The notes beneath the pieces were generated by a model. The model did no database searches. It was not told where the DNA came from and saw nothing but the letters and a program-made list of their open reading frames with translations. Made by a program: the position numbers and the translations under genes. A DNA stretch of 64,000 nucleotides from an uncultured delta proteobacterium (GTDB lineage Bacteria > Desulfobacterota > Desulfobacteria > Desulfobacterales > Desulfosalsimonadaceae), in assembly GCA_963826785.1 (NCBI GenBank), contig CAWGYD010000006.1, positions 672,001-736,000 of the forward strand, read 5' to 3'. Of this stretch, positions 27,625 through 57,723 are shown piece after piece (the stretch's first letter is position 1; each line of letters opens with the position of its first letter).

Positions 27625-27731
27625 TTTGCCAGCTGCATCAACAATCATCCCGTCTCTTCTGCACCACGAACATTGGATCCGGCAATCCTCGACACCTCTA
27701 TATCTATAATCGCCCTGCTGAGCCATAGCCA
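27625..27731 (+). repeat. ~100-bp array repeat R1 (degenerate)
   Basis: TTTGCCAG...CAATC...TTGGATCCGGCAATCCTC...CTGCTGAGCCATAGCC. Confidence 0.7.
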
Positions 27732-27818
27732 TTCGATATGATTGTTGGACGATAAAAACCATATAAATAGCCATATTTTAATATTGACTTAATCTCATAC
27801 ACCAACTATCTTTGAATC

Positions 27819-28112
27819 ATGGTAAAAAGATCCGATTTTGAATGGGATACAGTTAAAGACCAGCTTAATCAGGAGAAGCATGGAGTCTCCTTTGCGTTGG
27901 CGCAGCTTGCGTTTATGGACCATTATCGTGTCATCTTGGAAGATTTGGAACACAGCGGAGATGAAGAACGATATTACTGCCTTGGTAGGGTAGCAGAAGG
28001 AATAATGACCGTGAGATTCACTTACCGGAAAAATAAAATCAGAATCATCGGCGCCGGGTATTGGCGGAAAGGAAAACGAATATATGAAAAAGAAAATAAA
28101 ATACACAGATGA
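27819..28112 (+). CDS. brnT: BrnT-family toxin
   Basis: FEWD..K...N..KHGVSF, EERY..LG, VRFT.R...IRIIGA. Confidence 0.9.
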   Translation: MVKRSDFEWDTVKDQLNQEKHGVSFALAQLAFMDHYRVILEDLEHSGDEERYYCLGRVAEGIMTVRFTYRKNKIRIIGAGYWRKGKRIYEKENKIHR

Positions 28113-28311
28113 GCCAATGGGAAAGACCAAAGTTATTCCGGATTTTCTTCCTTCACCCGAAGAGCTCGCTTTGAAGGACGAAACCGTTAAGGTCACAATT
28201 GTGCTTAGCAAAACCAGCATTGATTTCTTTAAGAAGGAAGCAAAAAAATATAACACTCAATACCAGAAGATGATTCGCAGGCTTTTGGATGAGTATGCCA
28301 CTCATCAATAG
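28084..28311 (+). CDS. BrnA/CopG-like antitoxin
   Basis: DFLPSPEEL, VKVTI.LSK.SIDFFK, YQKMIR.LLD.Y; overlaps the toxin gene. Confidence 0.85.
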   Translation: MKKKIKYTDEPMGKTKVIPDFLPSPEELALKDETVKVTIVLSKTSIDFFKKEAKKYNTQYQKMIRRLLDEYATHQ

Positions 28312-28400
28312 TTTGCCATCACTGGTAGCAGTAATTTCGGCCTCCCTTCAAATTTGCACAATTGATTTGCCAAGTTATCCTTTTACCAGTCGGCCACATG
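28312..28400 (+). repeat. Array repeat R2 (left half only, strongly degenerate)
   Basis: TTTGCCATCACTGGTAGCA begins right after the antitoxin stop (compare CTTGCCATCCCCTGGCGCA in R16); TTGATTTGCCAA follows ~50 bp later. Confidence 0.4.
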
Positions 28401-28439
28401 TATGGCCTTGATGCAAATCTCAACAAAAGGAGGTCCGTC

Positions 28440-29275
28440 ATGCTACTTTCACAGGCAGTCAAGAATTTCATGGAGTACCAGAAGCTGAACGCGGGAAAAA
28501 AATACGGTCAAGAATTACGGACTCTTTCTCAGAAAATTTGATTTATATTTCAAAGATCAAGACGTCGGGTCAATCACACCAGATCAGATTTTTGAATTCT
28601 TGACCCAGGATACGCCAGGCCAGAAACAATCCACCAAGCGTTTCAAGTACACCCTTCTGAAAACCCTTTTCAATTTCATCAAGAATACCAGCGATCCCTC
28701 TTTTCTAAATCCCTGTGAATCATCGGTTTTGGGAAAGGCTTTTCGCGTCGCCAAAGGCCGCCAATGGGTCATCCTGGAAAAAGATGTGGTTGATGAAATC
28801 ATTTTCAGGACCGACAATCCAAGAAACCGGTTAATGCTCGAACTGATGGCCAGGGGCGGCATGCGGATTGGGGAGGTTTTGAAACTGAGGTCGATGGATG
28901 TCGACGGCTGCAAATTGTTTCTGATCAGCCCCAAGAGCGGCCGGCAGAATGAGGTGGTTTTCATCCCCAAAAAGGTTGCGGACCGGCTTAGGGAATATGT
29001 CCGGTCCAAAAAGGTTGCTGGAGGAAAGGGTTTTCCCGATGGGGTACACTGGCGCCCGACAAATCGTGAAGAAAGCGGGTAGACTGGTCGGAATCGAAAT
29101 GAGCCCTCATGATCTCCGGAGGCATGCGGCAACCTATGCAAGCCGGGCCGGCGCACCAATTGAAATCGTCAGCAAGGTCATTCTGCGGCATGCCAACCTG
29201 TCCACCACACAAAGATATTTGGGAAAAGTGAGCGATACCGAGGCAATTCGCTGGATCGACAACATCTTTAATTAA
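28440..29275 (+). CDS. XerC/D-like tyrosine recombinase (two frameshifts, ~28500 and ~29030)
   Basis: RBS AGGAGG; MLLSQAVKNF.EYQ / NTVKNY N-terminus; RGGMRIGE, HDLRRH and LRHANLSTTQRY catalytic motifs. Confidence 0.85.
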
Positions 29276-29280
29276 AATGA

Positions 29281-29314
29281 AAACCGGGGCATTTCTGAGG
29301 ATCTGCCCCGGTTT
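29281..29314 (+). terminator. Hairpin after the recombinase gene
   Basis: AAACCGGGGCA...TGCCCCGGTTT. Confidence 0.7.
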
Positions 29315-29380
29315 GCAAGATTGAAATCGCTATTGCTCAGAGAAGAATTTTGAGGATTACTGAAAGGCCATAGCTGAAGT
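29315..29380 (+). repeat. Array repeat R3 (right half, recombinase-proximal)
   Basis: ...GCTATTGCTCAG...AATTTTGAGGATTACTGAAAGGCCATAGCTGAAGT. Confidence 0.6.
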
Positions 29381-29626
29381 ACTCCACAACGATCCTCGCC
29401 CAGACATTCTGTTTCTTGAAATAAATCAAGAACAAGTCACATTATTTTTTGCTTCCCCCCATGCCTATATGAAATCTGTGATTTATATCGATTTCATATC
29501 TTGCTGTCTGTGCCTTTTTCCCGATTACACACCCTGCAACACAGGTTGCGCCTGGGCAAAGAAGGCATCAAAATATTTATAGCCCCGGCTCCAGTGGGTG
29601 TATGATTTTTTGAAAGGATGTGAGAC

Positions 29627-30658
29627 ATGGCCGTGTCTGAAAATGAATTTTCCCCGACGACGCGACTGGAAAATGGTTCGACCCCTAATAGGCCCGCATT
29701 ATATGTGACTTTGAGGCAGTACCGAAACCCGAGTACCCGGAAGGCCATCTGGCAATTGGCGAATACACTTCTTGCTTATGGGTTTTTGTGGTTGGCAATG
29801 ATCTGGTTAATCCGGAACGGCTATCATTATGGCTTTGTTCTGGCGCTGGCGGTGGTGGCTGCCTTGTTTCTGGTTCGGGTGTTTATCCTTTTTCATGATT
29901 GCGTCCATGGTTCATTGTTCCCCAAACAAAGCGCCAATACATTTTTCGGGCATGCGCTGGGGGTATTGGTGTTCACACCGTTTGACGACTGGCGTTTCAG
30001 TCATCTTAAACATCATGCGAGCTATGCCAACCTGGACGCTCGCGGGTTCGGCGATATCTGGACCATGACCCGAGAGGAATACGAAAATGCATCAAGGGCA
30101 AAACGATTGTCCTATCGCCTTTACCGTAATCCATTGATACTTTTTGGCTTCGGCGCGGTGTTCAGTTTTTTGCTGCGCTTTCGACTACCGGCACGATTGG
30201 CTACCCGTAAAGCGCGTGTGAGCGTCCTGTTTACCGATCTGCTCATCCTATTTGTCATTCTGATTGCGTCCTGGACGATAGGCTTGAGAACATATATTCT
30301 CATCCAACTGCCGGTGATCTGGTTGGCGGGGGCACTGGGAATCTGGTTTTTCTATGTGCAGCATCAGTTTGAGGGCGTATATTGGGCACGCAGGAGTGAT
30401 TGGGATGCATTGCGCGCAGCACTGGAAGGCAGTTCTTTCTACAAAGTGCCGGCAGTATTGCGCTGGTTTTCGGCTAATATCGGATATCACCATGTTCATC
30501 ACCTGAATTCACGGATTCCGAATTATTCGCTGAAACAATGCCATGACGCCGTGCCGGTCCTCAATAATAAGCCACCCCTCACAGTATGGAAAAGTCTATC
30601 CGGCATCCACCTGAAAATATGGGATGAAAAGAGAAAACAACTGGTCGGTTTCCCTTGA
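29627..30658 (+). CDS. Membrane fatty acid desaturase (Bacillus Des-like)
   Basis: His boxes HDCVH, HLKHH, QHQF, HHVHH; IPNY. Confidence 0.92.
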   Translation: MAVSENEFSPTTRLENGSTPNRPALYVTLRQYRNPSTRKAIWQLANTLLAYGFLWLAMIWLIRNGYHYGFVLALAVVAALFLVRVFILFHDCVHGSLFPKQSANTFFGHALGVLVFTPFDDWRFSHLKHHASYANLDARGFGDIWTMTREEYENASRAKRLSYRLYRNPLILFGFGAVFSFLLRFRLPARLATRKARVSVLFTDLLILFVILIASWTIGLRTYILIQLPVIWLAGALGIWFFYVQHQFEGVYWARRSDWDALRAALEGSSFYKVPAVLRWFSANIGYHHVHHLNSRIPNYSLKQCHDAVPVLNNKPPLTVWKSLSGIHLKIWDEKRKQLVGFP

Positions 30659-30704
30659 GTTGCGGGCAAGATTTATTTTAATCCGAACTTCTCATTCCAC
30701 CATG

Positions 30705-30809
30705 CTTGCCAGCCCCTGGCGCAATCCTGCTGCTTTTACCCATGGAAACTTGAACTGGCAATCCTCAGCAGGCCAATTTCTGCATTACTGTCCGGCCATA
30801 GCCGTAGTG
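30705..30809 (+). repeat. Array repeat R4
   Basis: CTTGCCAG...GCAATCC...CCCATGG...CTGGCAATCCTC...GCATTACTGTCCGGCCATAGCCGTAGTG. Confidence 0.9.
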
Positions 30810-30828
30810 GTGTTGCAATAATGGGGGT

Positions 30829-32856
30829 TTACCGGTCCACTGACATCCGGATGGCTTGAAGGAGTTCAACTGAAGGGGCGGCTTTGTAGACATAGGAACT
30901 GGCACCGGCACGTATCATTTTTTCTTTAATGGAAGGATCATCATGCATGCTCAAGCCGATGATGCAGGTGCGGGGGTGTTTCTTTAAAATCTCTTTAGTG
31001 GCGGCAATGCCATCCATTTCGGGCATGGTGATATCCATCAGGATCACATCCGGGGCGGTCTGGTCGGCCATTTGAATTGCCTCAAGCCCGTTTTCAGCCT
31101 GGGCCACCACCTCCAGATCAGGCTGATTCCGCAAAATGCCGGTCAGCCCCTCGCGCATGACGGCATGATCATCGGCCAGGAGAATACGGATTTTGCTGTT
31201 GCTGACGAAATCGTCCTTTTCGAATTTATTTTTCTCCAGCGCTTCTGGCCAATTTTTAGTCAGCCGTTTTTGGGAAGGATGGGGAATGTTGGGGACCTCG
31301 ATATTGATACGGCACCCGGCGCCCGGGGCGGATTCGATCTTGAAAGAACCTCCCATAAATTGAATCCGCTCCTCTATGGTGAACAAACCGTACCCGGCCC
31401 GATACTCTCGCCGCCGGCGTCGGAACTTGTCCATATCAAATCCCTTTCCGTGGTCGCTGACCGAAATTTGGATACAGCCGTTTTCAGACTTTATCCGAAG
31501 CTCAGCCCGATCCGTGTCAGCGTGTTTGACGATGTTAAAGAGCAATTCCCGGACAGAGCGGAACAGTGCGGCAGCGAGTTTGGGCGAATCGGGCTCTGCT
31601 TCCGGATCGACATGCAGCTCCACTTTCAGGCCGTAGCGTTCTTCTTTGCTTCGGGCCAGCCAATCCAAGGCTGACAGCAGACCGTTTTGCTGCAAGACCG
31701 GCGGGAAAAGCTCATGGGACAGGTTCCGGCATTTCTGAATGCTCTCATCAAGGAGGGACTCCACTGAGGCGACCCTTTCAGCGGTTCCCGGATCATTGAT
31801 TCCATCAGGAAACAGTCCGTCCAGCCGGAAACGGATGGCAGCCAAATACTGCTGGAGATCGTCGTGAAGGATATTGGCGATGCGGCGGCGCTCCAGGTCT
31901 TCCGCGCCGGAGAGTTCCAGGGCCAGCTGCCGCAGGGCCTCGGCCCGATGCTCCGCCTCGGCGGTGCGCTCGGCCACCTGCTGTTCAAGACGCTCGTTGA
32001 ATTTTTGCATTTCCTCCTCAGCCTGCTTACGAACGGTGATATCAGTAGAAATGCCGCCTACCGCATATATCCGCCCCTGCGCGTCGCGAAGTGGGAACTT
32101 CGTCGTCAACCACGTAATTGAGCGGTCCTTGAGTTGACTGTATTCCTCAAATTCCAGTGATCTTCCCGTCTCGATCGCCTGATGATCATTTTCTTCATGC
32201 CAGTCTGCGTCATCCTTGGGCATGAATTCATGCCGTCTCTTGCCGATCATCTGCTCCGGCGTGGAGTTAAACAGATCTGCAAGAGCGGTATTAACCAACA
32301 GAAAACGCTCCTCCAGATCGAATGCGTAGATTATAGAGGTTGTGTTGTCGATGATGTTCTGGATCTGCCTGTGGGCTGCGACCAGTGCCTCTTCTGCCTG
32401 CTTGCGGGCATGGACATTCACATTGATCCCGACCCATTTCTTTATGGAACCGTCGGGATTTCGCAAGGGAGCGGCCCTCACGCTGGTCCATTGATAGCCT
32501 CCATCCGCCTTGCGAAGACGAAATACTTCATGAAAGGGTGTGGCATTGGAAACCGCTTCATGCCATTTACGGCCTGCGAATTCCCGATCTTCGGGATGGA
32601 CTGCCTTCATCCAGCCGTCCGTCTCTAATAATTCTTGCAATTCTTGGCCGGTAAAGGTGCGCCAGCTTTCCGAATCCGAAACTGTCATCCCTCTTGGACT
32701 GGCTTCCCAGACTGCCATTGCCCAAGGTTCGACCAAAGCACGGAATTTATCAACTTCTTCCTGGTACGCCAGTTCCCTGGCCGCCATTTGCTTCCGCAAC
32801 TCATCTAATTCACGGATTAAATCTTGTTTGGATAGACTTTCGTACGGCTTCCTCAT
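30829..32856 (-). CDS. Hybrid sensor kinase PAS-PAS-HisKA_3-HATPase-REC
   Basis: Two PAS/PAC domains; ERRRIA..LHDDLQQ; N..KHA, D.GKGF and GYGL boxes; ILLADDH...DVILMD receiver. Confidence 0.9.
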   Translation of the reverse strand: MRKPYESLSKQDLIRELDELRKQMAARELAYQEEVDKFRALVEPWAMAVWEASPRGMTVSDSESWRTFTGQELQELLETDGWMKAVHPEDREFAGRKWHEAVSNATPFHEVFRLRKADGGYQWTSVRAAPLRNPDGSIKKWVGINVNVHARKQAEEALVAAHRQIQNIIDNTTSIIYAFDLEERFLLVNTALADLFNSTPEQMIGKRRHEFMPKDDADWHEENDHQAIETGRSLEFEEYSQLKDRSITWLTTKFPLRDAQGRIYAVGGISTDITVRKQAEEEMQKFNERLEQQVAERTAEAEHRAEALRQLALELSGAEDLERRRIANILHDDLQQYLAAIRFRLDGLFPDGINDPGTAERVASVESLLDESIQKCRNLSHELFPPVLQQNGLLSALDWLARSKEERYGLKVELHVDPEAEPDSPKLAAALFRSVRELLFNIVKHADTDRAELRIKSENGCIQISVSDHGKGFDMDKFRRRRREYRAGYGLFTIEERIQFMGGSFKIESAPGAGCRINIEVPNIPHPSQKRLTKNWPEALEKNKFEKDDFVSNSKIRILLADDHAVMREGLTGILRNQPDLEVVAQAENGLEAIQMADQTAPDVILMDITMPEMDGIAATKEILKKHPRTCIIGLSMHDDPSIKEKMIRAGASSYVYKAAPSVELLQAIRMSVDR

Positions 32857-33073: not shown

Positions 33074-33179
33074 GTTGCCACCCGGATCAGTATTCCTATC
33101 GCATGTTCCCCATCAACAATGGGCTTGGCAATCTTCAGCCGGCGAACAACAGGATTACTGCCAAAGCATAGCCGCAATC
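33074..33179 (+). repeat. Array repeat R5
   Basis: GTTGCCA...CCCCATCAA...TTGGCAATCTTC...GGATTACTGCCAAAGCATAGCCG. Confidence 0.9.
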
Positions 33180-33258
33180 TGCAGCCGCCAAGTTGCATAT
33201 CCTTATGAGCCGAAAAAAGATTCATGCTTTCTACTCAAAGAAGGCGAAATACTAATAT

Positions 33259-33293
33259 AAACCGGGGCTGATTTGGTATCGTGCCCCGGTTTT
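33259..33293 (-). terminator. Hairpin terminator of the small exported peptide gene
   Basis: AAACCGGGGC...GCCCCGGTTT. Confidence 0.6.
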
Positions 33294-33313
33294 ACAAGTT
33301 TGATATTAATTTT

Positions 33314-33472
33314 CTATTTGCCTTGCGGACCTGGTGATGGCGGAGACGGAAATCCACTGCCATCAGGAATACCATCACCAGAATTTGGTGCAGGACCTCC
33401 TCCCGCGTAAACTGTTCCAACGGAAAAACCAATAAATGCCATCACAACGAGAATTAATGCCCACTTTTTCAT
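33314..33472 (-). CDS. Small exported Gly/Pro-rich peptide (52 aa)
   Basis: RBS GGAGG; signal peptide MKKWALIL...VYA; mature part GGGPAPNSGDGIPDGSGFPSPPSPGPQGK. Confidence 0.7.
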   Translation of the reverse strand: MKKWALILVVMAFIGFSVGTVYAGGGPAPNSGDGIPDGSGFPSPPSPGPQGK

Positions 33473-33548
33473 ATTGCCCTCCTTCCTTGTGATTGAAATA
33501 ATCAAAAATTATTTTTATGGGTTTTAATCCCCCAATATTTTAAATAGA

Positions 33549-33565
33549 TGCATAAAATTTGCCAA
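33549..33565 (-). promoter_or_regulatory. Putative sigma54 promoter
   Basis: TTGGCAAATTTTATGCA (GG-N10-GC) on the minus strand, upstream of the peptide gene. Confidence 0.5.
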
Positions 33566-33887
33566 ATTTAAACTCAACTTGCGATATTCGTACGGTTTAT
33601 CTCTATAGTTGGATTGATCGAAATACTTCATTGGTAAATTGGCTGGGAATCAGTTCCTGGAAGCGGATCTCGTGAACAAACCTAATATCCCATGCATATA
33701 TAGAAGGGCCGATGGGATCATAGTTAACGATAGTGAAATAAATGCGTATATAAAAATGAACTATTGTGAACTTTTGTATATATATAAATTCAAAATCCAG
33801 CATTTCGGTTTTTTTAAGATTTAAAATAAAAATATTAAAAAATAAGGAAATAAATAGTTAGATATAATGGACCTATAATCGTGATTA

Positions 33888-33903
33888 TGGCATATAAAAT
33901 GCT
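33888..33903 (+). promoter_or_regulatory. Putative sigma54 promoter
   Basis: TGGCATATAAAATGCT (GG-N10-GC), followed by the palindrome AATTTTGGAC...GTCCAAAATT at 33913-33942. Confidence 0.5.
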
Positions 33904-33985
33904 TCGAAAGAAAATTTTGGACTCCGATATGGGTCCAAAATTCAATTTGAACAAGCACTGAATTAGCATTTGAGGATCTAAGCGT

Positions 33986-34441
33986 TTGAACATTCAAAAT
34001 GTAATATCCAAACTAATTTGCATTTTGCTCCTCTTAGCCGTGTTGATGCAACCCTGTTCATGCGGCACATTGTTGTATCCCGAAAGACGCAATTCTAATC
34101 CGCATAACCGGATTCTCCCGGAAGGGCGCCAGATTGATCCAGCGGTAGCGATTATGGACGCTGCCTGCCTGGTCTTCTTTATCGTTCCAGGTTTAATTGC
34201 CTTTGCAGTCGATTTTGCCACGGGTGCGATTTACCTGCCACGAGGGAACCGAAGCGCTCTGATGCTCGATGATAATGAAAATATGGTTGTCTGCGTTGAT
34301 CCTCAAATATTGAATCCTGATGTAATTAAACAAATCATTCGCCAGAAGAAGGGTATTGATGTCGACTTCAAAGATAATCGGATGAAGGCCTACTTGGCCG
34401 AATCAGTTAATTATAATGTGATGTTATACCTAAAGATGTAA
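33986..34441 (+). CDS. Conserved hypothetical lipoprotein
   Basis: Signal peptide, CGTLLYPERR, LVFFIVPGLIAFAVDFATGAIYLP. Confidence 0.65.
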   Translation: MNIQNVISKLICILLLLAVLMQPCSCGTLLYPERRNSNPHNRILPEGRQIDPAVAIMDAACLVFFIVPGLIAFAVDFATGAIYLPRGNRSALMLDDNENMVVCVDPQILNPDVIKQIIRQKKGIDVDFKDNRMKAYLAESVNYNVMLYLKM

Positions 34442-34562
34442 TGCGGTTTACGCTTTTAATCTTATTCCCTTCTTGGATTTCTCTGAATAATACAACAATT
34501 ATTCTCACCTTAATTCCGCCTGTAACAAGTTCATTAGAGGCCATTTTCACTGATATAACTAA

Positions 34563-36099
34563 CCCTACAACGCTCTTCGCTAAGATAAAACTTGATCAAA
34601 GTCCTTTTTTTGGGGCATATTACATGATAAAACCCCTAAAAGAGGAGGTGCCCCATGCTGCCCGACATGCGACAATCGGATTATCTCTACCCAGTGCCAA
34701 AATTTGATCTCAATCAGGACGATGTCAATCAGTTTACAAATGAATTAAAAGGCTTCCATGAACAATTCGATGACTGTTTTTTCAGGTCAGAGTCAAGAGA
34801 TAATTTTTTTCGGTACATCGCCCGCCAGTTCAGCCAAATAGAGCGAAAATCAATTGAGCCGATCGCCATTGCCATGGAAGGCGGGAAGGTTCGCGCAATG
34901 CAACGCTTTGTCAGTGATGCGCCCTGGGATGATAAAAAATTGATATCTAAGTATCAAATTATGGACGATTTGGGTCATCCGGACAACGATAATGATTTTC
35001 GATGAATCCGGGTTCATCAAAAAAGGTGATGACAGCATTGGCGTCGGCAGGCAATATTGCGGAACCGTCGGCAAAGTCAACAATTGCCAAGTCGGCGTTT
35101 TTGCGGCCTATGCTTCACCATACGGCTATGGGTTGATAGACAAGCAATTATATATTCCACAGCATTGGTTTGACGATGATCACGAAGAGCGAAAGAAATA
35201 AATGCAGACTGCCGGAAAATGTTATATTCCAAACCAAGCCGCACCTGGCTGCCGGCATGCTCAAGCATCTCTATGATGAAAAGACCATTCCTTTCGCTAT
35301 GTGCTGGGCGATTCGGTATCAGGGACAAGTGCGGAATTTATTGCTACAATCGAAAGCATGGTGGGAATGACCTATTTGGTGCAGGTCCCCGAAGATACAT
35401 TATGTTGGGCAAAGCGACCGATCACAATCACAAAAAGTTATTGTTACGGCGGCAAAAAGCAGACGAAGCGTATTCTGTCTGACACATCCGGCGATCCAAT
35501 TAAATTCGAAACATTGGCTTCCGGGATTCATAATTATTTTTGGTATCGGCGCAAAGTGTCGGAGGGAACCAAGGGGCCGATCGAATATGAATTTATGAGA
35601 CGTCGTGTGGTTTTGTCCAACAGAGGGCTTCCGGAAAAGGAAATTTGGTTGTTGGTAAGAAAAATGATGGGCGAGAATTTGCGAAATCTGCTATTATATT
35701 AGCAATGGTTCACAAAGCGTGAAAATGAGCACCTTGATCTGGCTGCGCGGTTTACGCTGGGCCATTGAGCAGTGTGTAGAAAATCCGAAACAAGAGTCCG
35801 GGGATCGACCATTATGAAGTTCGTAAATTTCCTGGATGGCACCATCATATGCTCACATGCATGCTGGCCCATTTATTTATTTTGGCACCTGAAAATCAGG
35901 TTGGGGAAAAAAAAGCACCGTCGCTTACTCTATCGCAGCTTAAGATTTTATTGAACGTACTGCTGCCGTTTAGGATATTTGGCCTTGCTGAATCCATCGA
36001 CCTGGCTCGCTGGATTCAGCGTAAAAATCATAAAGCCTATCTGTCCCACCAGAAACGGAAGCTGATGAGGCAGAATGATAAGTAAGATGTCGTTGTAGG
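34563..36099 (+). mobile_element. IS701-family insertion sequence with frameshifted transposase (34655-36085)
   Basis: RKSIEPIA, FDESGF.KKG..S.GV.RQYCG..GK..NCQ.GVF and RWAIEQ motifs; IRs CCTACAACG / CGTTGTAGG; CTAA on both sides (possible TSD). Confidence 0.85.
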
Positions 36100-36103
36100 C
36101 TAA

Positions 36104-36501
36104 GTGAAGACCTATTCACTGATTCTGGTCCTGATTGCCGCCATAATCCCCAATGTAATTGGTTGCGCTCATGTTGATAAAAGAACGAAACCAATTGTTT
36201 ATCATGGAAAAGCTTCATATTATGGCGACTGGCATCAAGGGAAAATAACGGCCAATGGAGAAGTTTTTAACAAGAACAAACTCACCTGCGCCAATAAAAA
36301 AGTGCCTTTTGAAACATATGCCGGGTTACGAATAACTCGAACGACAGAAGTGTCATCGTCAGAGTAAATGACGGGGCCATATATCCGGGGCGGAGAGTGG
36401 ATCTATAATACAGAGCGATGAAGGATTTAGGGGGAGTCAAAGATGGCGTAATAGACGTCCGGGTTGAAATAATTGAGCTTGGTTCATGCATCCACCCATA
36501 G
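36104..36501 (+). pseudogene. RlpA-like septal ring lytic transglycosylase lipoprotein (frameshifted)
   Basis: GKASYYG..HQGKITANGE.F, then VRVNDGA..PGRRVDL in another frame. Confidence 0.75.
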
Positions 36502-36607
36502 AAGAAAAAAGAGAGCAGAATTTATCGAAATACTATCGAGGCCATTTCTGATCGCACCATCCTTTTTTGGCAGAATCTATTAAATAAATTGAAAAAAGCT
36601 GTTTGAA

Positions 36608-36715
36608 TTGGACCCAAACAATGCAATTTTCTCCCTGCCTTTTCTGTCCAGTAAAATATGGATCTGGCAATCCTCAGCAGGTCAACTTTCGCATTGCTGG
36701 CAGTCACACTTTGTG
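36608..36715 (+). repeat. Array repeat R6 (ends degenerate)
   Basis: GGATCTGGCAATCCTCAGCAGGTCAACTTTCGCATTGCTGGCAG. Confidence 0.75.
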
Positions 36716-37918: not shown

Positions 37919-38022
37919 CTTGTTTACAATTCTGTTCCATCCGCATTTTATCCCCATGAACGTCGGAATTGACAATCCTCGGCATTTCAATGACACATTC
38001 CTGCCAGTCTAAAGCCGCAGTG
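37919..38022 (+). repeat. Array repeat R7
   Basis: CCCCATGAAC...TTGACAATCCTC...CATTCCTGCCAGTCTAAAGCCGCAGTG. Confidence 0.8.
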
Positions 38023-38170: not shown

Positions 38171-38981
38171 ATGAAACTTGAGGTCATTTCAAACTCACCA
38201 GCCACGCCGTGCAAATCTCCACCAATTCTTTTGATACATGGAGCTTGGCACGGAGGGTGGTGCTGGAAAGACAATTTCCTGGATTTTTCGCTGAGAAAGG
38301 CTGGGAAACCCATGCAATGAGTCTCAGAGGCCATGGCCAGAGTGAAGGAGTGAAAAAATTCGCGGGCGGTCTATTGCTGATTATGTTGCGGATGTCAGGA
38401 AAGTCGTCGATAGCTTGAGATGTGAACCTATAATCATCGGCCATTCCATGGGTGGATTTGTAACTCAAAAATATCTGGAAAAGTATTCGGCAGTCGCTGC
38501 GATTCTATTGGCTTCTGTTCCGACCTCCGGGACATTCAAATTCAACATTCGTGTCATAAGACGGCATCCTTTGCTTTGGCTTAAAGCCAACTTAATAATG
38601 AAGCTTTACCCTATTGTGAAGAATCCAATCCACGCCCGAGAGTGGTTCTTCTCCGACTGCATTTCAGATGAGGATTTGGCCAACCACCATTCTCAATTGC
38701 AGGACGAATCATTCCGTTGTGCATTGGACATGCTTATGCTCAATCTCCCAAAACCTCAGTTGATAAAGACGCCAATTGCAGTTTTGGGTGCCGAAAATGA
38801 TGCAATCTTTTCGGTTGAGGAAGTCCAGAAAACAGCTCGGGCTTATGGAGTAGAAGCAAAAATTTTTCCAAATATGGCGCATAACATGATGTCGGAGCCA
38901 GATTGGAAAGATGTTGCAGAATGGATTGCCTGTTGGATTGAATCGATTCCCCTTGAAACGATTTCATCCGAGGTGAGTTAG
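38171..38981 (+). pseudogene. Alpha/beta hydrolase (frameshifted near the 5' end)
   Basis: IHGAWHGGWCW, SLRGHGQS, GHSMGG, catalytic D and H (AHNMM). Confidence 0.85.
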
Positions 38982-39076
38982 TCACAGTATTCCCCTCTTT
39001 TACACCCCATGAAACTTGAACATGGCAATCCTCAGATGGCTAATTTCCGGATTACTGCCAAAGCATAGCCGTAGTG
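38975..39076 (+). repeat. Array repeat R8
   Basis: CCCCATGAAACTTGAACATGGCAATCCTC...GGATTACTGCCAAAGCATAGCCGTAGTG. Confidence 0.9.
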
Positions 39077-40579: not shown

Positions 40580-40684
40580 TACGGTGAACCTTACAGCAAT
40601 CCTGCAGATCCCGCCCAGTAAACCATTGATCGGCAATCCTCCACACTCCGATAATGGCATTACTGCTGGGTCATAGCCGAGTCC
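40580..40684 (+). repeat. Array repeat R9
   Basis: GCAATCCTGC...TTGATCGGCAATCCTC...GCATTACTGCTGGGTCATAGCCG. Confidence 0.85.
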
Positions 40685-43153: not shown

Positions 43154-44686
43154 CTGATATGGTTGACAGTTGTCAAGAGAAAAAAGTACTTCCTGCCAAC
43201 TGTTTTTCAGCGGTCCTTGTCGTGGTTATATTCCAAGGCACCCAAAGGGGCGGAACCGATAGCGACGGGAGATCACTCTGATATTCGCGGGTTGGTTACG
43301 GCATGCCTTAGCTTCGTCGCGGAGCTGCCTCGGTCTAGGTCCGCGAAGTCGGCCTTAAGGCTTATCCAATAGTGCTTTCAGGGTTCTCCTGGCCGTGGTT
43401 GCGCCCCTATGGCTGCCTTTAAATGCTTTTTTCGTTTTAAACTTCCTTTATTTGCAAATGCGTCCGTTGTAATGGGTTCTTTGTTATGCCGCTACTGGAG
43501 TTTTGTTTCATTGGCGATCGCCCACATGAAAGCACAAAGTTCTCTTGCGATGGCAGTTACGATGACTTGTTTCACTTTGCCTTTGGCCCATAGGTGCCGG
43601 TAGCGTGAACATAGTCGGAGTTGGGCTTTCCATGCAATGTCGCAAATAGATTGTGGTAAGTCTTCTTGCCGTTTGACGATACCCGGCTGACTCTGGCCGG
43701 CAGCCGGTAGGCCAGGCAGCCTCAACCAATACACGCCGCACATGGCCATTGCCGGTCTTGGTGATCGAGCCGCGCCTGATCTTTTGGCCGCTGGAAGATT
43801 CCGACGGCACCAGGCCCAGGTAGCTCATCAGCTCGGCAGGATTTTCAAATCGTTTCAGGTCGCCGATTTCGGCAATCGTCGTGGCCGCCACGATCATTGA
43901 AACACCGCGCTGCTCTGAAGCGCTTGAACGACCGGAACAGTTGCCATTCGGGCAACAGCTGCAGGATCTGATCGGTTAACCGCTGTACCCGATCTTTGCA
44001 CTGGTTAAGGGTGCCGATATACTCCTGCAGGACGACCTGCTGTGACCGGTGGGGCATCTTAATGTCGGACAGCCAGCGCATATGGGCCTGGCTCCGCGAT
44101 GCCCGGCCCGTATAGCGGATGCCGCTGCGAAGCAAAAAGGCCAGCAGACGCTGTTTGCTTTTTTTCTCATCGCCCTTGGCATCCTCCCGGGCTCGTCAGA
44201 TTCTGACGGCCTCGTCCTCAGCCAGGGGAACGTGAACAGCGGTCAGTTCACCGGCGCGATGCAAGCGGGCAAGCATCAGGGCATCCCGGCGATCGTTTTT
44301 GATCTGCTTGCCACTGGGTTTGGGGATCCTGGAAGGAGCCACTACCGAGCAATCGAAGCCCCGGGAAGTGAGGTGGCGGTAGATCTGGTATCCGCAGGGG
44401 CCGGCCCCATATCCAAAATGCAGCCGGTTGCCTTTGCTGACCAATTTTCGAACCACCTTGTCTATTGATGCAAGGGTGCCGTCTATTTGGCCGTAGTGCA
44501 GGATCTCTCCGTCACAGCCGGTTTTCGCAATGGCGATATCGATGGAATTTTTATGGACGTCCATACCAATAAATGTGCTATTCTCTGTCATGACCTGCCT
44601 CCTTGGTTTTGGCTCTGTGTTGGGTGGTTTAAAATGACTTCCAACATAACCCACGTTTGCAAGGATGGCAGGTCTTTTAATTATCA
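43154..44686 (-). mobile_element. IS110-family element (IS1111-type layout) with frameshifted transposase 43492-44591 and long 3' non-coding region
   Basis: IGMDVHK, KNDRRDA, YLGLVPSESSSG, ITKTGN, TAIAREL motifs; ends TGATAATT... and ...TTGACA-N8-CCATATCAG. Confidence 0.85.
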
Positions 44687-44728
44687 ATGGGTGTGCCAAG
44701 TGTGAGGTCAGCGAAATTCATCATGGCC

Positions 44729-44766
44729 GAGAATGGGCCCTCAAAAGCTCGTCGGAGGCCATGATG
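44729..44766 (+). repeat. 38-bp direct repeat, copy A
   Basis: GAGAATGGGCCCTCAAAAGCTCGTCGGAGGCCATGATG; 34/38 identical to 59912-59949. Confidence 0.8.
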
Positions 44767-44782: not shown

Positions 44783-44886
44783 CTTGCCGACACAAATTGC
44801 TCTGCTATCTGTCAACCATTATGTCTAAATCTATCAATCCTTGGCACCCCAAAAACGGCATTACTGCCAGACCCATAGCCGAAGTG
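44783..44886 (+). repeat. Array repeat R10
   Basis: CTTGCCG...ATCTATCAATCCTT...GCATTACTGCCAGACCCATAGCCGAAGTG. Confidence 0.8.
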
Positions 44887-46419: not shown

Positions 46420-46524
46420 CTTGCCAGCTGGATCGTAATTCTGTCATTTTTGCCCCACAAAAATTAGATCTGGCAATCTTCTGCCATCCAAAAGCCGAAT
46501 TACTATTTATCCATAGCCGTATTC
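46420..46524 (+). repeat. Array repeat R11
   Basis: CTTGCCAG...CCCCACAAA..TTAGATCTGGCAATCTTC...ATTACT...CCATAGCCG. Confidence 0.8.
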
Positions 46525-47624: not shown

Positions 47625-47727
47625 TTCGCCATTTTGATGAAGCAACCTCGCCTTATTACCCGTGAATCTTGGATCTGGCATCCTCAATTGCGAAGAACCG
47701 AGATTACTGTCGAGGCATAGCCGATAT
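47625..47727 (+). repeat. Array repeat R12
   Basis: CCCGTGAATCTTGGATCTGGCATCCTC...GATTACTGTCGAGGCATAGCCG. Confidence 0.8.
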
Positions 47728-50209: not shown

Positions 50210-50313
50210 CGCCAACCTTGCCACGAAATGCGTCGCCTTTTAACCCTCCTGAACACTGGACCTGGAACTTCGCAGGCGAATTTCTGGGTTACTGCCAGGC
50301 CATCACCTAAGTG
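50210..50313 (+). repeat. Array repeat R13 (degenerate)
   Basis: CTTGCCA...CCTGAACACTGGACCTGGAACTTC...GGTTACTGCCAGGCCATCACCTAAGTG. Confidence 0.65.
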
Positions 50314-53109: not shown

Positions 53110-53214
53110 CTTGCCAACCCCTGTAACAATCCCGCATTTTCTGTCCCATGAACATTTGATCTGGCAATCCTCTGAACACCAAAATCCGCATTGCTGCCAG
53201 TCCATAGCCGGATG
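53110..53214 (+). repeat. Array repeat R14
   Basis: CTTGCCA...CAATCCCGC...CCCATGAACATTTGATCTGGCAATCCTC...GCATTGCTGCCAGTCCATAGCCG; starts at the base after the araC stop. Confidence 0.92.
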
Positions 53215-53348
53215 GTTGAGTTAACTTGTATGAATTTCTTCGCCTGCCACATTGTGGCAATTCTCTTGACAAATAAACCCTGTAATTCATAATGACTGTA
53301 AATATCTTATCATGATTAGAAGGTTTCTTTTTTCGATAAATTTTCAAA

Positions 53349-53720: not shown

Positions 53721-54034
53721 TTTCCGCTTGTATAACCACAGCCGAATTTTCTTAGTTCGGGAATTTGCCTTCAAACGGCCGGCGGCTCTGTCAGCCGTAT
53801 AAAGCCTGCCGATAAATATTTGGTTTACGGCTGCCATAGGCGAGCACGCTCAAGATGAAAAATCAGATAAAGGATTGCAGCAGAGAGCGGGGTCATAAAT
53901 CTGCCCCCCTTTTGCAAAACATCGGATTATTTGCCGGTGATTCCTTTATCCATTCAAGTTCTAAAATCGGCAATGACTAAAACAGAAATATTATCGAGTC
54001 AGATTTGAATATATAATAGAAGGACAAATCAATC

Positions 54035-55489
54035 GTGAATAAATCCAAAAGAGTTTATATCGCAACCGGCATATTTATTTCAGGCGCCGCAGTCATGCTG
54101 ATCGAGCTGGTCGGCACGCGAATTATCAGGCCTATTTTCGGTTCAGGTATTTATGTCTGGTCCGCGCTGATTTCAGTTACGCTGGCATCTCTTGCCATCG
54201 GCTACTGGATCGGTGGGCGATTGGCGGATAAAAGGCCGGTTTTTACCACGCTCTACCTTCTGTTTCTTGCCATCGGAGTTGTGATGATACCCGTTCCTTT
54301 TATTTCGGGAAGCATAATGATGCGGTGCTATGCCGCCCTGGGCAGCGTGGGCGGAGGTTTGTGCAGCACCGTTGTGCTGTTTTCAATTCCATTGATACTG
54401 CTTGGGATAGTGCCGCCGACAATGATCCGGCTTCGGGCAACGATCGTTGAAACCATCGGGGCTACCGCAGGGAGCCTTTATGCGATTTCAACTTTCGGCA
54501 GTCTTGCCGGGACATTTTTGACGGGTTTTGTGCTGATTCCAAACATCGGAAATAAGGAAATCTTTCTGTTTTGTGCCAGTATTTTAATTTCGTTCTCCGC
54601 TGTGGGCTGGATCATTTTGGAAAAAAAATTTTCTGCCGCTGCGCTTCTGGTGGTTGCTTTTCTCATCCCATCATCTGCAAAACTGGTGATGGAGCAGAAA
54701 GATGGGCTTATATTTTCAGATCAAAGCCTCTATGGCGCCATTGAAGTGGTTGACAGATATGGAGAAAGATCCCTGTTAATCGACGGCAATACGAATTCTC
54801 ATATCAGCCTGGTGCCCGGCATTGATCCGATTCAATGTGAATATGTCAGAAGGTTTTCACTGCTTCCATTATTCCGGCCCGAAAGCCGTAATGGATTATG
54901 CATCGGCATGGGGGGCGGCCTGATCCCCCGGTTGCTGTCAAGATCAGGCATTGTTTTTGACATTGTTGAAATTGACCCGGTCATCCCCCGGGTTGCCCGC
55001 GATTACTTTGGCGGCCTTCAAAACAATGAAGACGTATTTATCGCGGATGGCAGATATTTTCTAAACACGATTGATCGGCAGTATGATTTTATTGTGGTGG
55101 ACGCATCCAATATTGATCATGTGCCGTTTCATCTATACTCCAAAAATTTTTTCAACGAGGCAGCGGCCAGGCTTTCTCCGGACGGGGTATTTTCCATGAA
55201 CACTTTGGGCACCCCAAATGGCGGTCAGTTCGAAAGCATACAAACAACGCTTTCAGCCGTATTTGCCCATGTGCGTGCGTTCCGGGCCCACACAACCGAA
55301 TCATCCGGAAATGCCGTCTTTTTCGCATCCAATGCACCACTTGAATTGTCACCTGAAAAGGAGGCAGAATACCAAGTTTACGAAGCGCATTTTGAGGAAA
55401 ACGGCATCATCCTGACGGATAACTTCAATCCGATCGATGTGCTGAGCGCCAAAATCGGCCCGGCCGTAAGAGATTATCATCAAAATTAG
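54035..55489 (+). CDS. Fused membrane domain / spermidine synthase-like methyltransferase
   Basis: ISG..VM..EL...R...P.FG; IGMGGG, VEIDP, DGR.FL, YD.I.VD, LTDNFNP. Confidence 0.85.
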   Translation: MNKSKRVYIATGIFISGAAVMLIELVGTRIIRPIFGSGIYVWSALISVTLASLAIGYWIGGRLADKRPVFTTLYLLFLAIGVVMIPVPFISGSIMMRCYAALGSVGGGLCSTVVLFSIPLILLGIVPPTMIRLRATIVETIGATAGSLYAISTFGSLAGTFLTGFVLIPNIGNKEIFLFCASILISFSAVGWIILEKKFSAAALLVVAFLIPSSAKLVMEQKDGLIFSDQSLYGAIEVVDRYGERSLLIDGNTNSHISLVPGIDPIQCEYVRRFSLLPLFRPESRNGLCIGMGGGLIPRLLSRSGIVFDIVEIDPVIPRVARDYFGGLQNNEDVFIADGRYFLNTIDRQYDFIVVDASNIDHVPFHLYSKNFFNEAAARLSPDGVFSMNTLGTPNGGQFESIQTTLSAVFAHVRAFRAHTTESSGNAVFFASNAPLELSPEKEAEYQVYEAHFEENGIILTDNFNPIDVLSAKIGPAVRDYHQN

Positions 55490-55548
55490 CATGATTCCTC
55501 CTCCCGGTATAAACGGCCCTGAAGTGGGAAGGAAACGGGACAGATGAT

Positions 55549-56556
55549 ATGATGGATACAGATCACCATCAAAACGGCCACAATCACAAACACAGCCATG
55601 GCCATACGCATGTTGCCGTTGATCCCTCTGTTCTGACTACCCAAAGAGGGATATGGGCCATCAAGTGGTCGTTTGCCGGACTGTTCGCTACGGCCGCTTT
55701 CCAGATCATTATTGTCGTGTTTTCCGGGAGCGTGGCGCTGCTGGCAGACACGATTCACAACTTTGGCGATGCCGCCACAGCTGTTCCTTTGTGGATTGCC
55801 TTTCGGCTTGCCCGCTTGAAGCCCAATGATCGATTTACCTATGGTTATGGCCGCGTGGAGGACTTGGCGGGCGCGGCAATCGTATTCACCATTCTGTTCA
55901 GCGCAGCTGTGGCAGGGTATGAGTCGATTGATCGTTTTTTTCATCCGCAGACCGTAAAACACCTCTGGGCGGTAATCCTGGCCTCAGTAATCGGATTTAT
56001 CGGCAACGAGGCCGTGGCCCAGTTTCGCATCAAGGTGGGCAAAGAGATCGGCAGCGCTGCTTTGATTGCCGACGGGCATCATGCGCGAGTCGACGGGCTC
56101 ACGAGTCTGGCCGTGCTTTTGGGTGCGGCGGGCATCTGGCTGGGATATCCGAAGGCCGATCCCGTTGTCGGTCTGCTCATTACCCTTGCGATTTTAAGAA
56201 TCGTTTGGGACTCCGGAAAATCCGTCTTCACCCGGATGATCGACGGGGTGGACCCGGAGGTTGTCGATGAAATACGGGAGGCTGTAAGTCTGACACCCGG
56301 TGTAAAAGGCATCTCCGAGGTGCGGGTAAGATGGCTGGGGCACCGGCTTCATGCAGAACTGAATATTTCCGTAAACGCTGAGCTGTCAGTTGCGAAAGGG
56401 CATGAAATCGCCAAAGAAGCGCGGCATGTCCTCCAGCATAAATTGAAATACCTCTCGAATGCCACAATCCATATTGATCCGGTTAATGCTTCGGGTGAAG
56501 CGCATCACCGGATCAATGGGCATGAGCACGATGATTTGCCAGCCCACTCACATTGA
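55549..56556 (+). CDS. Cation diffusion facilitator (CDF) transporter
   Basis: His-rich termini; SVALLADTIHN..D, FTYGYGRVE, ADG.HAR.D motifs. Confidence 0.92.
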   Translation: MMDTDHHQNGHNHKHSHGHTHVAVDPSVLTTQRGIWAIKWSFAGLFATAAFQIIIVVFSGSVALLADTIHNFGDAATAVPLWIAFRLARLKPNDRFTYGYGRVEDLAGAAIVFTILFSAAVAGYESIDRFFHPQTVKHLWAVILASVIGFIGNEAVAQFRIKVGKEIGSAALIADGHHARVDGLTSLAVLLGAAGIWLGYPKADPVVGLLITLAILRIVWDSGKSVFTRMIDGVDPEVVDEIREAVSLTPGVKGISEVRVRWLGHRLHAELNISVNAELSVAKGHEIAKEARHVLQHKLKYLSNATIHIDPVNASGEAHHRINGHEHDDLPAHSH

Positions 56557-56575
56557 AATTTTCACTTGCAGATTG

Positions 56576-56681
56576 CTTGCCAGTGCCTGGAACAATCCCG
56601 CCTTTTCCCCTCGCATGAATATTTGATCTGGCAATCCTCCGAATGGTAATTTCTGCATTACTGCCAGACCATAGCCGCATG
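56576..56681 (+). repeat. Array repeat R15
   Basis: CTTGCCAG...CAATCCCGC...CATGAATATTTGATCTGGCAATCCTC...GCATTACTGCCAGACCATAGCCG. Confidence 0.92.
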
Positions 56682-56784
56682 ATGCATCGCGAGTGTTTTG
56701 ATCTTGCGCCTTCATCGTGTTTGGAAAGTTCGCATGAAACGTTGCCTCAGCATATTTTTTGATAAAAAATTTCCTTGCTTGTTT

Positions 56785-56800
56785 GTACCAAAATTGGTAC
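56785..56800. promoter_or_regulatory. Palindromic operator of the TA operon
   Basis: GTACCAA-AA-TTGGTAC, 10 bp upstream of the toxin ATG. Confidence 0.6.
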
Positions 56801-56809
56801 TTATTGTTT

Positions 56810-57160
56810 ATGAATGAATTGAAGAGACTCACTGCCAGATTTTATCGGACAGAATCCGGAGGCGAACCAGTTAGGGAGTGGTTAAGGAAACTTGGCCGGC
56901 CGGATTGCACGCTTATCGGCGAGGACATCATGACAGTGGAGTTCGGTTGGCCTATTGGAATGCTAACATGTAAACCGATGGGAAAAGGGTTGTTTGAGAT
57001 CCGGACCAACCTTCCCGGCAACCGAATTTCCCGAGTCCTATTTTGTGTCAAGGAAGGACAGATGTTTTTGCTTCATGGGTTTATCAAAAAAACTCAAAAA
57101 ACTGAAAAAGCGGATCTGGATTTGGCTTTAAAACGTAAGAATGATTTGGAGGAAAAATAA
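56810..57160 (+). CDS. RelE/ParE-family (gp49/HigB-like) toxin
   Basis: FYRTE.G.EPVREWL, GWPIGM, GL.EIR, LLHGFIKKTQK. Confidence 0.88.
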   Translation: MNELKRLTARFYRTESGGEPVREWLRKLGRPDCTLIGEDIMTVEFGWPIGMLTCKPMGKGLFEIRTNLPGNRISRVLFCVKEGQMFLLHGFIKKTQKTEKADLDLALKRKNDLEEK

Positions 57161-57162
57161 AC

Positions 57163-57450
57163 ATGAATAACAGGCATATCGGCTCAAAATTTGATGATTT
57201 CCTTCAAGAAGAAGGGATTCAGACTGAGGTGACGACCCGGGCTTTGAAAAAGGTCCTTGCCTGGCAGATCACCGAAACTATGAAAAAAGAGGGACTGAGC
57301 AAAACGAAAATGGCGGCCAGGATGAAAACCAGCCGCTCTGCGTTGGATCGGCTGCTTGATCCGGGAAATACTTCGGTTACACTCCAGACCATGGATCGAG
57401 CCGCTATAGTTTTAGGAAAGAGGCTCCATGTTGAACTTATGGATGCTTAG
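57163..57450 (+). CDS. XRE-HTH antitoxin
   Basis: HIGS.FDDFL.EEG, MA.RM.TSRS.LDRLLDP.N.SVTL. Confidence 0.88.
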   Translation: MNNRHIGSKFDDFLQEEGIQTEVTTRALKKVLAWQITETMKKEGLSKTKMAARMKTSRSALDRLLDPGNTSVTLQTMDRAAIVLGKRLHVELMDA

Positions 57451-57618
57451 GGACCGTAAATACACCGGATTTATTTCCGAACCCCCTCCAATTACGATAA
57501 TCTTTCTATGTGTTCCCCTTCCGTTTTTCTATCTTTCCGCTCATTAGTGAGAACCAATGCGTCGGCCCCGGTTGCACATAACTATTCCGGCAGTATCGCA
57601 ATGCATCCGGGCAGTAAA

Positions 57619-57723
57619 CTTGCCATCCCCTGGCGCAATCCTGCTGCATTTCCCCATGAAACTTTAATCTGACAATCCTCAGCGGGCCAATTTCCGCATT
57701 ACTGGAAGACCATAGCCGAACTG
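57619..57723 (+). repeat. Array repeat R16 (last copy seen)
   Basis: CTTGCCATCCCCTGGCGCAATCCTGCTGC...CTGACAATCCTC...GCATTACTGGAAGACCATAGCCG. Confidence 0.9.

Follow-up and report, generated by a model that had tools for sequence, protein, structure and literature searches.

What separates the unrelated gene modules that follow one another in a low-GC island of an uncultured delta proteobacterium, and which enzyme, if any, moves them? The window analysed here is a stretch of 64,000 nucleotides (GCA_963826785.1, contig CAWGYD010000006.1, here C6, positions 672,001 to 736,000). Between window positions 27625 and 57723, a degenerate repeat of ~105 nt is present as 14 full and two partial copies, 16/16 on the + strand (chance ~3e-5), and the gene of a short XerA-like tyrosine recombinase lies nested in one of them. 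Among systems that accumulate genes as cassettes and reshuffle them, integrons are, to our knowledge, the only one studied well. A first-pass annotation, made from the letters of this stretch alone, had taken the repeats for recombination sites of a distinct cassette system driven by the adjacent recombinase. We consider it somewhat probable that the repeats are the sites of a non-integron chromosomal cassette system served by the nested recombinase, a recoded enzyme whose activity we infer.

A repeat profile was built from the window copies and searched over the whole genome with nhmmer. In the window it placed the 14 full copies across C6:699622-729726 (window 27622-57726; E 5e-29 to 9e-16), which bore out the recurrence and the + strand orientation of the ~16 copies first counted, although those at 28312 and 29315 proved to be partial. 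The latter terminates in CCATAGCTG at 29376. The sole additional profile match in the window is a 3' piece at ~29354-29384, and positions 1-27600 and 57727-64000 gave no match at E<=1. The claim that no copies occur elsewhere thus held within the window but not genome-wide, where 10 more copies were found outside it (E<1e-5; 24 genome matches in total). The window copies, with the duplicated module that carries the last of them, are as follows.

27625..27731, + strand: junction repeat 1, full, ending in CCATAGCCA (nhmmer E=3.9e-18)
28312..28385, + strand: junction repeat, 5' two thirds (TTGCCA box to c-box), truncated at the start of the recombinase unit (sequence reading)
29312..29376, + strand: junction repeat, 3' two thirds (5' box, c-box, loop, d-box, CCATAGCTG), the recombinase-proximal site (motif 98 nt past the stop codon)
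30705..30804, + strand: junction repeat (E=1.5e-26)
33074..33174, + strand: junction repeat (E=2.4e-22)
36608..36713, + strand: junction repeat without terminal ATAGCCG (E=6.5e-17, model positions 10-97 only)
37919..38017, + strand: junction repeat (E=1.1e-17)
38975..39071, + strand: junction repeat (E=9.5e-23)
40580..40679, + strand: junction repeat (E=2.7e-18)
44783..44881, + strand: junction repeat (E=4.4e-17)
46420..46519, + strand: junction repeat (E=1.4e-20)
47625..47723, + strand: junction repeat (E=4.6e-16)
50210..50308, + strand: junction repeat, its end being CCATCACCT (E=8.6e-16)
53110..53210, + strand: junction repeat (E=5.3e-29)
56576..56677, + strand: junction repeat, left border of the duplicated RelE/XRE module (E=4.3e-26 and boundary alignment)
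56678..57718, + strand: RelE(Gp49)/XRE module with its own repeat (57619-57718); second copy at C6:3158-4199, - strand

The two copies of the RelE/XRE module locate the borders of exchange. They share 97% identity over 1151 nt. Their left-hand repeats differ throughout (~70% alike), and the copies turn identical inside the 9-nt CCATAGCCG; their right-hand repeat is identical through CCATAGCCG and is followed by immediate divergence. Because the identity of the duplicated module is bounded inside CCATAGCCG, a unit consists of the gene or genes plus the following repeat, and the alignment places exchange at the repeat's 3' edge, either inside CCATAGCCG or immediately past it. The same module starts also stand behind different repeats in a comparison set of 61 related genomes (labels G0xx): this was seen in G015/G021, in G018/G005 and in G005/G021/G009 (comparisons L043/L046; L047/L048; L040/L045/L024). 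Information content over 58 copies peaks in ATAGCCG and is then near zero, with a weak preference for A at +2 and T at +4. The unit is of the integron type, with gene(s) and one site, a 3'-edge crossover and a co-oriented array. The exact borders inside CCATAGCCG and the module starts shared after different repeats agree with the first-pass claim that the repeats are recombination sites, and support their being true module junctions.

Read from 5' to 3', the site comprises CTTGCCA, a variable stretch, a 5' box, a c-box, a loop of ~17 nt, a d-box, one base and CCATAGCCG. The 5' box is CCCATGAA... in the source genome and TGCACCTTGAAT in relatives, the c-box is CTGGCAATCC and the d-box is GGATT-ACT-GCCAG. 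Together, c-box and d-box make up an imperfect inverted repeat that is interrupted by a 3-nt bulge and ends ~10 nt before the junction. Across 53 copies from several genera, this inner inverted repeat has 74.6% of cells paired vs 68.8+-1.0 in shuffled controls (0/500 reach this value) and a covariation score of 0.211 vs 0.147 (0/500), with slid controls at <=45.5%; these pairing and covariation statistics may be inflated by the relatedness of the sequences. Clear compensatory swaps occur at two inner-stem pairs (GC/CG/AU and AU/UA), and within the source genome alone the stem, drawn by hand, is weakly supported (72.1% vs 69.9%, 16/500 shuffles). By eye, TGCCAG-like hexamers stand at three places: the site start, the c-box (there inverted) and the d-box. 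The repeat element has no terminal inverted repeats.

Which enzyme could act on such a site? The gene nested in the repeat is the candidate, and its unit contains two features besides the repeat pieces.

28440..29275, + strand: short XerA-like tyrosine recombinase gene (Pfam Phage_integrase, translations, orthologues)
29284..29311, + strand: terminator-like hairpin CCGGGGC...GCCCCGG, then TTT, after the recombinase gene (by reading; conserved in orthologues)

The gene is flanked by the repeat pieces at 28312..28385 and 29312..29376, and this nested layout recurs in relatives. A search of the 61 related genomes recovered intact 262-aa orthologues with 76-82% identity in G005, G015, G021 and G025, which are exactly the four repeat-positive genomes of genus g6; the two repeat-negative g6 genomes are without the recombinase. 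The gene is also present in G014 and G036, and distant copies (47-63%) occur in six other families. The 5' part of the repeat precedes the gene in the window and in 5/5 intact orthologues of repeat-positive genomes, and it breaks off past the c-box to continue as TGTTATTTTT. After the gene, the terminator hairpin and a 3' part of the repeat ending in (C/A)ATAGCCG follow in 4/5 orthologues, with the end altered in G005. The upstream piece in G015 corresponds to repeat positions 2-69 and the downstream piece to 47-end, so the gene sits inside the repeat and has a 5' box and a c-box on either flank. The host repeats of the recombinase end in CATAGCCG, GATAGCCG, AATAGCAG and ATCGATAGTCC. Conservation of the proximal site in G015, G021 and G025 runs as far as AATAGCCG, and the DNA beyond is unrelated, as expected if modules had been inserted at this site. 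An ATAG-type end lies 97-128 nt past the stop codon in 9/13 genome loci, among them 50-63% orthologues from three other families, with ends of this type in G059 (CAATAGCAG), G053 (TCATAGCAG) and G037. Metagenomes contributed 65 recombinase loci; at >=82% identity, five of the six assessable loci carry the motif and one an ATGGCCG variant.

The enzyme itself is XerA-like rather than XerC-like, as it was first described, while its physical linkage to the array, nested in the window and in 5/5 orthologues, agrees with that description. The catalytic R, HxxR, H and Y of an orthologue align to XerA 4A8E, and the best PDB relatives are 4A8E (E=5e-16) and 5HXY (E=4e-7). The nested recombinase shares these catalytic motifs, and the absence of an arm-binding domain, with XerA-type recombinases (PDB 4A8E, 5HXY). 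In contrast to XerA, it falls below the NF040815 equivalog cut-off (109 and 125 bits; cut-off 220), and its context is a cassette array instead of chromosome dimer resolution. Against the IntI model TIGR02249 it scores 46-52 bits (cut-off 265), the window pieces 30 bits. A protein search gave 5147 matches at E<=1e-10; the top 120 are >=61% identical, and the named homologues among these 120 are called only 'integrase' or 'site-specific integrase', one being from Desulfonatronospira thiodismutans. The family is present in 8/201 genomes sampled across the phylum, and a plasmid collection held no match at E<=1e-30.

At first pass the recombinase gene had been read as broken, and for the first of its frame changes this has to be revised, as the change falls at a conserved recoding site. 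The start frame occupies 28440-28541, and the remainder is in the +1 frame from an A7 run at 28496-28502: the first ~21 codons, MLLSQAVKNFMEYQKLNAGKK, are in one frame, and the rest, EKNTVKNY..., is in the other. The run is one A too long in 14/15 run-bearing genome genes (A7, A8 or A9; six of the 15 read by eye), the gene at L121 (A8) being in frame, and in 18/19 determinable metagenome loci, where L190 (A8) is in frame. Relatives without the run are in frame throughout (...NSRENT..., ...NAKKNT...). This excess of one A, constant at every run length, is better explained by programmed slippage, whether the transcript realigns or the ribosome shifts by +1, than by random decay or by a simple on/off phase switch. 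In transposase genes and in dnaX, frame changes are known to occur at poly-A tracts of at least 7 (Antonov et al. 2013, PMC3711429) and give the full-length product, as is proposed here; the main text of that article contains neither 'integrase' nor 'recombinase'. The present case differs from the recoded transposases and dnaX in that the recoded gene is a tyrosine recombinase and the 0-frame product is only ~30 aa.

The repeat family is not confined to this array. It occurs in 15/61 related genomes, all of one family (genera g1, g6 4/6, g9 4/6, g10 6/6), where the repeats also form co-oriented arrays. A pattern scan of genome contigs, which by its strictness gave only 13 loci, found the repeat in Desulfobulbus alkaliphilus DSM 24258 and Desulfobacterales and Desulfobacteraceae metagenome-assembled genomes, and also matched a few short contigs in oddly labelled bins. 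In the source genome, the copies outside the window are the following.

C6:3149-4301, - strand: two repeat copies (E<1e-5)
C1:860168/864570/875445: repeat copies (E<1e-5)
C2:83997-84108: repeat copy (E<1e-5)
C3:161875/163782: repeat copies (E<1e-5)
C1:371147: solitary repeat copy (E<1e-5)
C6:373941: solitary repeat copy (E<1e-5)

Apart from the solitary copies, these are clustered and have the same orientation inside each cluster, which is not the random-orientation scatter named at first pass as a sign of an ordinary dispersed repeat. The repeats at C1:864570 and C1:875445 (L013, L014) are near-identical with unrelated DNA on both flanks, and this pair suggests that a single repeat may be exchanged or converted by itself.

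From these observations a mechanism can be proposed. Recombination between two co-oriented repeats would release a circle carrying one repeat, and the reverse reaction would insert the circle at any repeat. The enzyme would be the short XerA-like tyrosine recombinase encoded at 28440-29275, and it would recognise the conserved part of the site 5' of the junction, that is, the TGCCAG-like boxes with the c/d inverted repeat; 3' of the junction there is almost no conservation. Full-length enzyme would arise only after a slip of RNA polymerase or ribosome on the A-run, and activity would be kept low in this way, as in insertion sequences. As the modules are large, bidirectional and self-regulated, the array would store and reshuffle self-sufficient modules and would not serve expression from one promoter.

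Several observations weigh against this proposal. A symmetry scan at the junction gave a best mean complementarity of 0.42 and no clear palindromic core, so that an inverted-repeat core of the tyrosine-recombinase type is missing around the junction. The gene was not found by this query in 8/15 repeat-positive genomes (G009, G017, G023, G026, G027, G030, G034, G035), G023 having only a 42% match with two stops; G018 and G031 have fragments only. It is present in four repeat-negative genomes of the family (G013, G014, G032, G036), and the repeat model found no match in these or in G059, which is likewise recombinase-positive and repeat-negative; other end motifs stand there. The co-location of repeats and recombinase clade, put forward as a check by the first-pass annotation, is seen in 4/4 repeat-positive g6 genomes and was not found by this query in eight of the 15 repeat-positive genomes. 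Among assessable metagenome loci of all identities, the strict ATAG motif follows the gene in only 9/38 and is clade-restricted, a clade at 75-77% ending in TTATCGATAG(T)(C/G)C instead; the link between gene and repeat end holds firmly in the near clade but only in part outside it. The window copy also changes frame a second time, at an A5 run (29008-29012), a change that may reflect either a real defect or an assembly error. Finally, the nested layout would be equally expected of a selfish unit that targets the repeats, and the presence of the 5' box and c-box segment on both sides of the gene resembles duplication of an attachment (att) site via a short att core.

These last two points lead to the first of four alternatives, in which the recombinase unit is a small selfish insertion targeting the repeats and the modules are moved by another enzyme. 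IS1111-attC elements and group IIC-attC introns insert into attC sites in such a manner, and the unit described here resembles them in being a small element whose position within the recombination site of a cassette array is fixed, although its gene encodes a tyrosine recombinase and not a DEDD transposase or a reverse transcriptase. In the 75-79% clade, homology between G014 and G036 extends over only ~980 nt around the gene, as a selfish unit would predict, and so would the arrays in genomes where this query did not find the gene. However, no other recombinase was consistently near the arrays in the loci scanned, neither IntI nor an IS91-linked recombinase tracks the repeats, and on its 3' side the recombinase unit ends at a canonical ATAGCCG junction, beyond which unrelated modules follow in G015, G021 and G025. 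We regard this alternative as unlikely. At L105 in G014 (C32), the C-terminus of the recombinase is encoded a second time ~3.9 kb further downstream, and this locus may hold two nested recombinase units. A further pair of enzymes was considered at L038 (G005:C8:2142-4626), a two-repeat module with tandem intact tyrosine recombinases (310 and 369 aa, XerC/XerA-like) and an Smr protein; with 24-29% identity to the window enzyme they are unrelated to it, and were rejected as the enzyme of the system.

A second alternative is that the repeat is the nick site of an HUH-type single-strand nuclease (relaxase-, IS91- or IS200-like), with units peeled from site to site. Conservation that lies entirely 5' of the junction and stops sharply, a covarying imperfect hairpin just before it and strictly co-oriented copies would all suit such a nuclease, and the genome encodes RAYT-like Y1 HUH proteins of 291-347 aa at C6:850875, C6:215051, C4:322812 and C8:290208 (L073-L076), one with a DnaA C-terminal helix-turn-helix; Y1_Tnp gave five matches genome-wide (C4, C6:215 kb, C6:851 kb, C8). 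None of these genes lies near a repeat copy, and they were rejected as drivers. Unlike the repeats of the REP/RAYT (REPIN) systems, short palindromes that flank a single RAYT gene and are scattered about it in either orientation, those described here are 105 nt long, co-oriented and not near any Y1 gene. Moreover, the whole site folds only weakly as single-stranded DNA (mean z -1.2 for the top and -1.0 for the bottom strand, 54 copies), no relaxase was found in the array loci scanned, relaxase families not having been searched genome-wide, and the only Y2 transposase is a fragment of an insertion sequence inserted at GAAC. A nuclease of this kind is an improbable driver of the array.

That insertion sequence stands directly behind the last repeat.

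57722..59389, + strand: IS91-family remnant with a tyrosine recombinase (57865-58704, one in-frame TAA) and a Y2 transposase fragment (58682-59389)

IS91/ISCR elements, which move by rolling circle with a Y2 HUH transposase and have ori/ter ends, take GAAC/CAAG as insertion target, and the remnant is inserted after GAAC, 3 nt beyond the repeat. The IS91-linked element starts at TGAACCGC, directly after GAAC, in 5/5 contexts, and the same 30-nt junction of repeat and IS91 element is found in a different genus (L039, G005:C80), both copies being decayed. The single Y2 fragment of the genome does not fit IS91/ISCR capture as the driver of the array. The recombinase at 57865-58704 belongs to the 'integron-like' recombinases described for IS91 elements (10.1101/542381). 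As it is IS91-linked and has close homologues in the repeat-negative genomes G019 and G046, it was rejected as the array integrase, and by its context the remnant is a passenger.

In the third alternative, the repeats are highly divergent attC sites, a cluster of attC sites lacking an integron integrase (CALIN), served in trans by the IntI of the genome. An attC site is an imperfect palindrome with R''/R' boxes and conserved AAC...GTT. The unit architecture is the same, gene plus 3' site with a 3'-edge crossover, toxin-antitoxin modules are common in the array, and the genome has an intI gene. Alignments of 21 and 53 copies, however, contain no conserved AAC/GTT triplets at the repeat ends, RNAalifold found 0 pairs and no consensus structure in 21 copies, and an outer 'R-box' helix, in which the 5' box would pair with the start of the module, was rejected (-5.04 vs -4.73 kcal/mol shuffled, p=0.25, 27 modules). 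The strict pattern RYYYAAC...GTTRRRY had 0 matches in the repeats and also 0 in the control array on contig C5, and by itself does not discriminate between the two. IntI (E<=1e-40) is present in 33 of the 61 relatives, 6/15 repeat-positive and 27/46 repeat-negative, and G005 has 19 repeats and no IntI; on this genome distribution IntI was rejected as array driver. In keeping with the first-pass claim, which these four lines of evidence (ends, consensus hairpin, outer-box pairing and IntI association) uphold, the repeats are by primary sequence and predicted folding not attC sites, and we find it very hard to credit that they are divergent ones.

The same genome contains a separate, canonical-looking integron at C5:189162-198118 (L011). 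Its intI (C5:189246-190159) scores 335 bits with TIGR02249 and is split by a frame change near the 3' end, and it is followed by ~13 small co-oriented open reading frames with attC-like palindromic sites that differ from the window repeats and end in GTTATGC, GTTAGCA and GTTGGGT (by eye). No direct repeats beside this intI were found by sequence search. A contact between the two kinds of array is provided by the BrnT/BrnA module between the first repeat and the recombinase unit.

27819..28311, + strand: BrnT/BrnA toxin-antitoxin module (Pfam BrnT_toxin 1.4e-21, BrnA 1.2e-4)

These BrnTA genes (compared over 27759-28311) have homologues with 76-79% DNA identity in G002 (L129, C3) and G047 (L130, C19), the homology ending at the BrnA stop codon, and in both genomes a palindromic attC-like site ending in GTTATAC follows (by eye). 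Since the same BrnTA genes stand in attC-type cassettes, the junction repeat occupies the place of the attC.

With integrons, attI sites, attC arrays and CALIN taken as defined by Cury et al. 2016 (PMC4889954), the comparison can be drawn as follows. The system is like integrons in its co-oriented arrays of unrelated modules, each closed by a recombination site with a 3'-edge crossover, in having one tyrosine recombinase gene beside the proximal site along with arrays that lack a recombinase, and in its frequent toxin-antitoxin modules, with a BrnTA module in common with true attC cassettes. It is unlike integrons in its 262-280-aa XerA-like recombinase, too short, judged from size, for the IntI-specific insertion; in sites without AAC/GTT boxes or a whole-site hairpin; in a recombinase gene that lies within the site, in the same orientation, and needs recoding; and in modules of 1-12 kb that are bidirectional and have their own regulators, whereas integron cassettes are mostly promoterless, co-oriented, single-gene and expressed from the Pc promoter.

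Xer/dif-based systems offer another comparison, namely the arrays of integrative mobile elements exploiting Xer (IMEX) at dif and the pdif modules of Acinetobacter plasmids. The likeness lies in a simple Xer-like recombinase, in modules between short sites and possibly in one active half-site. The co-oriented sites of ~105 nt contain no 28-bp dif-like two-arm core, and conservation stops at the junction, where two inverted ~11-bp arms around a 6-8-bp centre would be expected; the recombinase is element-encoded and recoded and is not the housekeeping XerC/D.

The last alternative, a REP- or MITE-like (repetitive extragenic palindromic or miniature inverted-repeat transposable element) or regulatory intergenic element whose module pattern is incidental, for example through homologous recombination between copies, would account for intergenic, multi-copy repeats with some solitary copies (C1:371147, C6:373941) and an imperfect hairpin, but has next to nothing to recommend it when the duplicated module is bounded on either side within the same 9 nt at the 3' edge, although its left-hand repeats are only ~70% alike, terminal inverted repeats and an Rfam match are missing, copies in arrays are co-oriented regardless of gene orientation, and a recombinase gene is nested in the element. 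On the Rfam point, which the first-pass annotation had raised as a possible refutation, only two tRNAs reached the gathering score in the window, and there were 0 matches at E<=1 over 56500-57800.

The modules themselves are diverse, and most of their first labels were confirmed by Pfam: BrnT/BrnA, the recombinase, a fatty-acid desaturase, a PAS hybrid kinase, MerR, an alpha/beta hydrolase, an amidohydrolase, a NarL-type regulator, a CN-hydrolase with AraC, a CDF transporter and Gp49(RelE-like)/HTH. At E<=0.001 Pfam gave no support for the labels 'ATP-grasp', 'VOC', 'SCP2', 'DUF1328' and 'lipoproteins', nor for 'S8 protease', where a PKD domain was the sole match. That modules lie in both orientations and carry regulators of their own was seen again, with - strand genes in 5/15 intervals and AraC, MerR, NarL and hybrid-kinase regulators among the contents. 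Modules measure 1.0-4.8 kb in the window and <=12.5 kb in relatives, and across the arrays they comprise toxin-antitoxin pairs, regulators, sensor kinases, transporters and enzymes in both orientations.

The array is part of a low-GC island (GC 0.43-0.49 vs 0.54-0.62) that lies within window 24001-64000 and starts right after two tRNA genes.

24207..24376, + strand: tRNA-Lys and tRNA-Glu, left edge of the array-bearing low-GC island (Rfam gathering score)

Between these tRNAs and the first repeat lies an IS1634-family transposase (25237-26850, - strand). The module at 33180-36600, which precedes the repeat lacking ATAGCCG, consists of a DDE_5 transposase fragment and several small open reading frames without a family. 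An IS110-family transposase split into three open reading frames sits within a module at 43508-44766, and 38 nt at its end are found again (89%) next to an OmpA fragment, at 59912-59949. Several genes of the island are split, besides the recombinase gene. Past the array, at 60098-63829, are AbiEi, zeta-like kinase and HicA/HicB modules, and no junction repeats were detected there.

The literature searched, mostly at abstract level, contained no published description of a cassette layout with a nested recombinase. We tentatively entertain, as a possibility that falls somewhat short of our reading of the repeats themselves, that the locus represents a second, independently evolved integron-like machine, in which a slippage-switched XerA-like recombinase residing in its own site reshuffles large modules at CCATAGCCG, in several families of sulfate reducers and with gene exchange with true integrons. 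If this is true, the cassette strategy would have had two or more origins, which differ in recombinase clade and in the kind of site, and would here act on multi-gene, self-regulated modules and not on promoterless single genes. The nested enzyme would be the first recoded tyrosine recombinase in the literature searched, and with its site it would provide a new recombinase/site pair for genome engineering. Surveys of cassettes that rely on IntI and attC alone would miss such arrays, and the repeats would give a new handle on the exchange of adaptive genes among environmental sulfate reducers.

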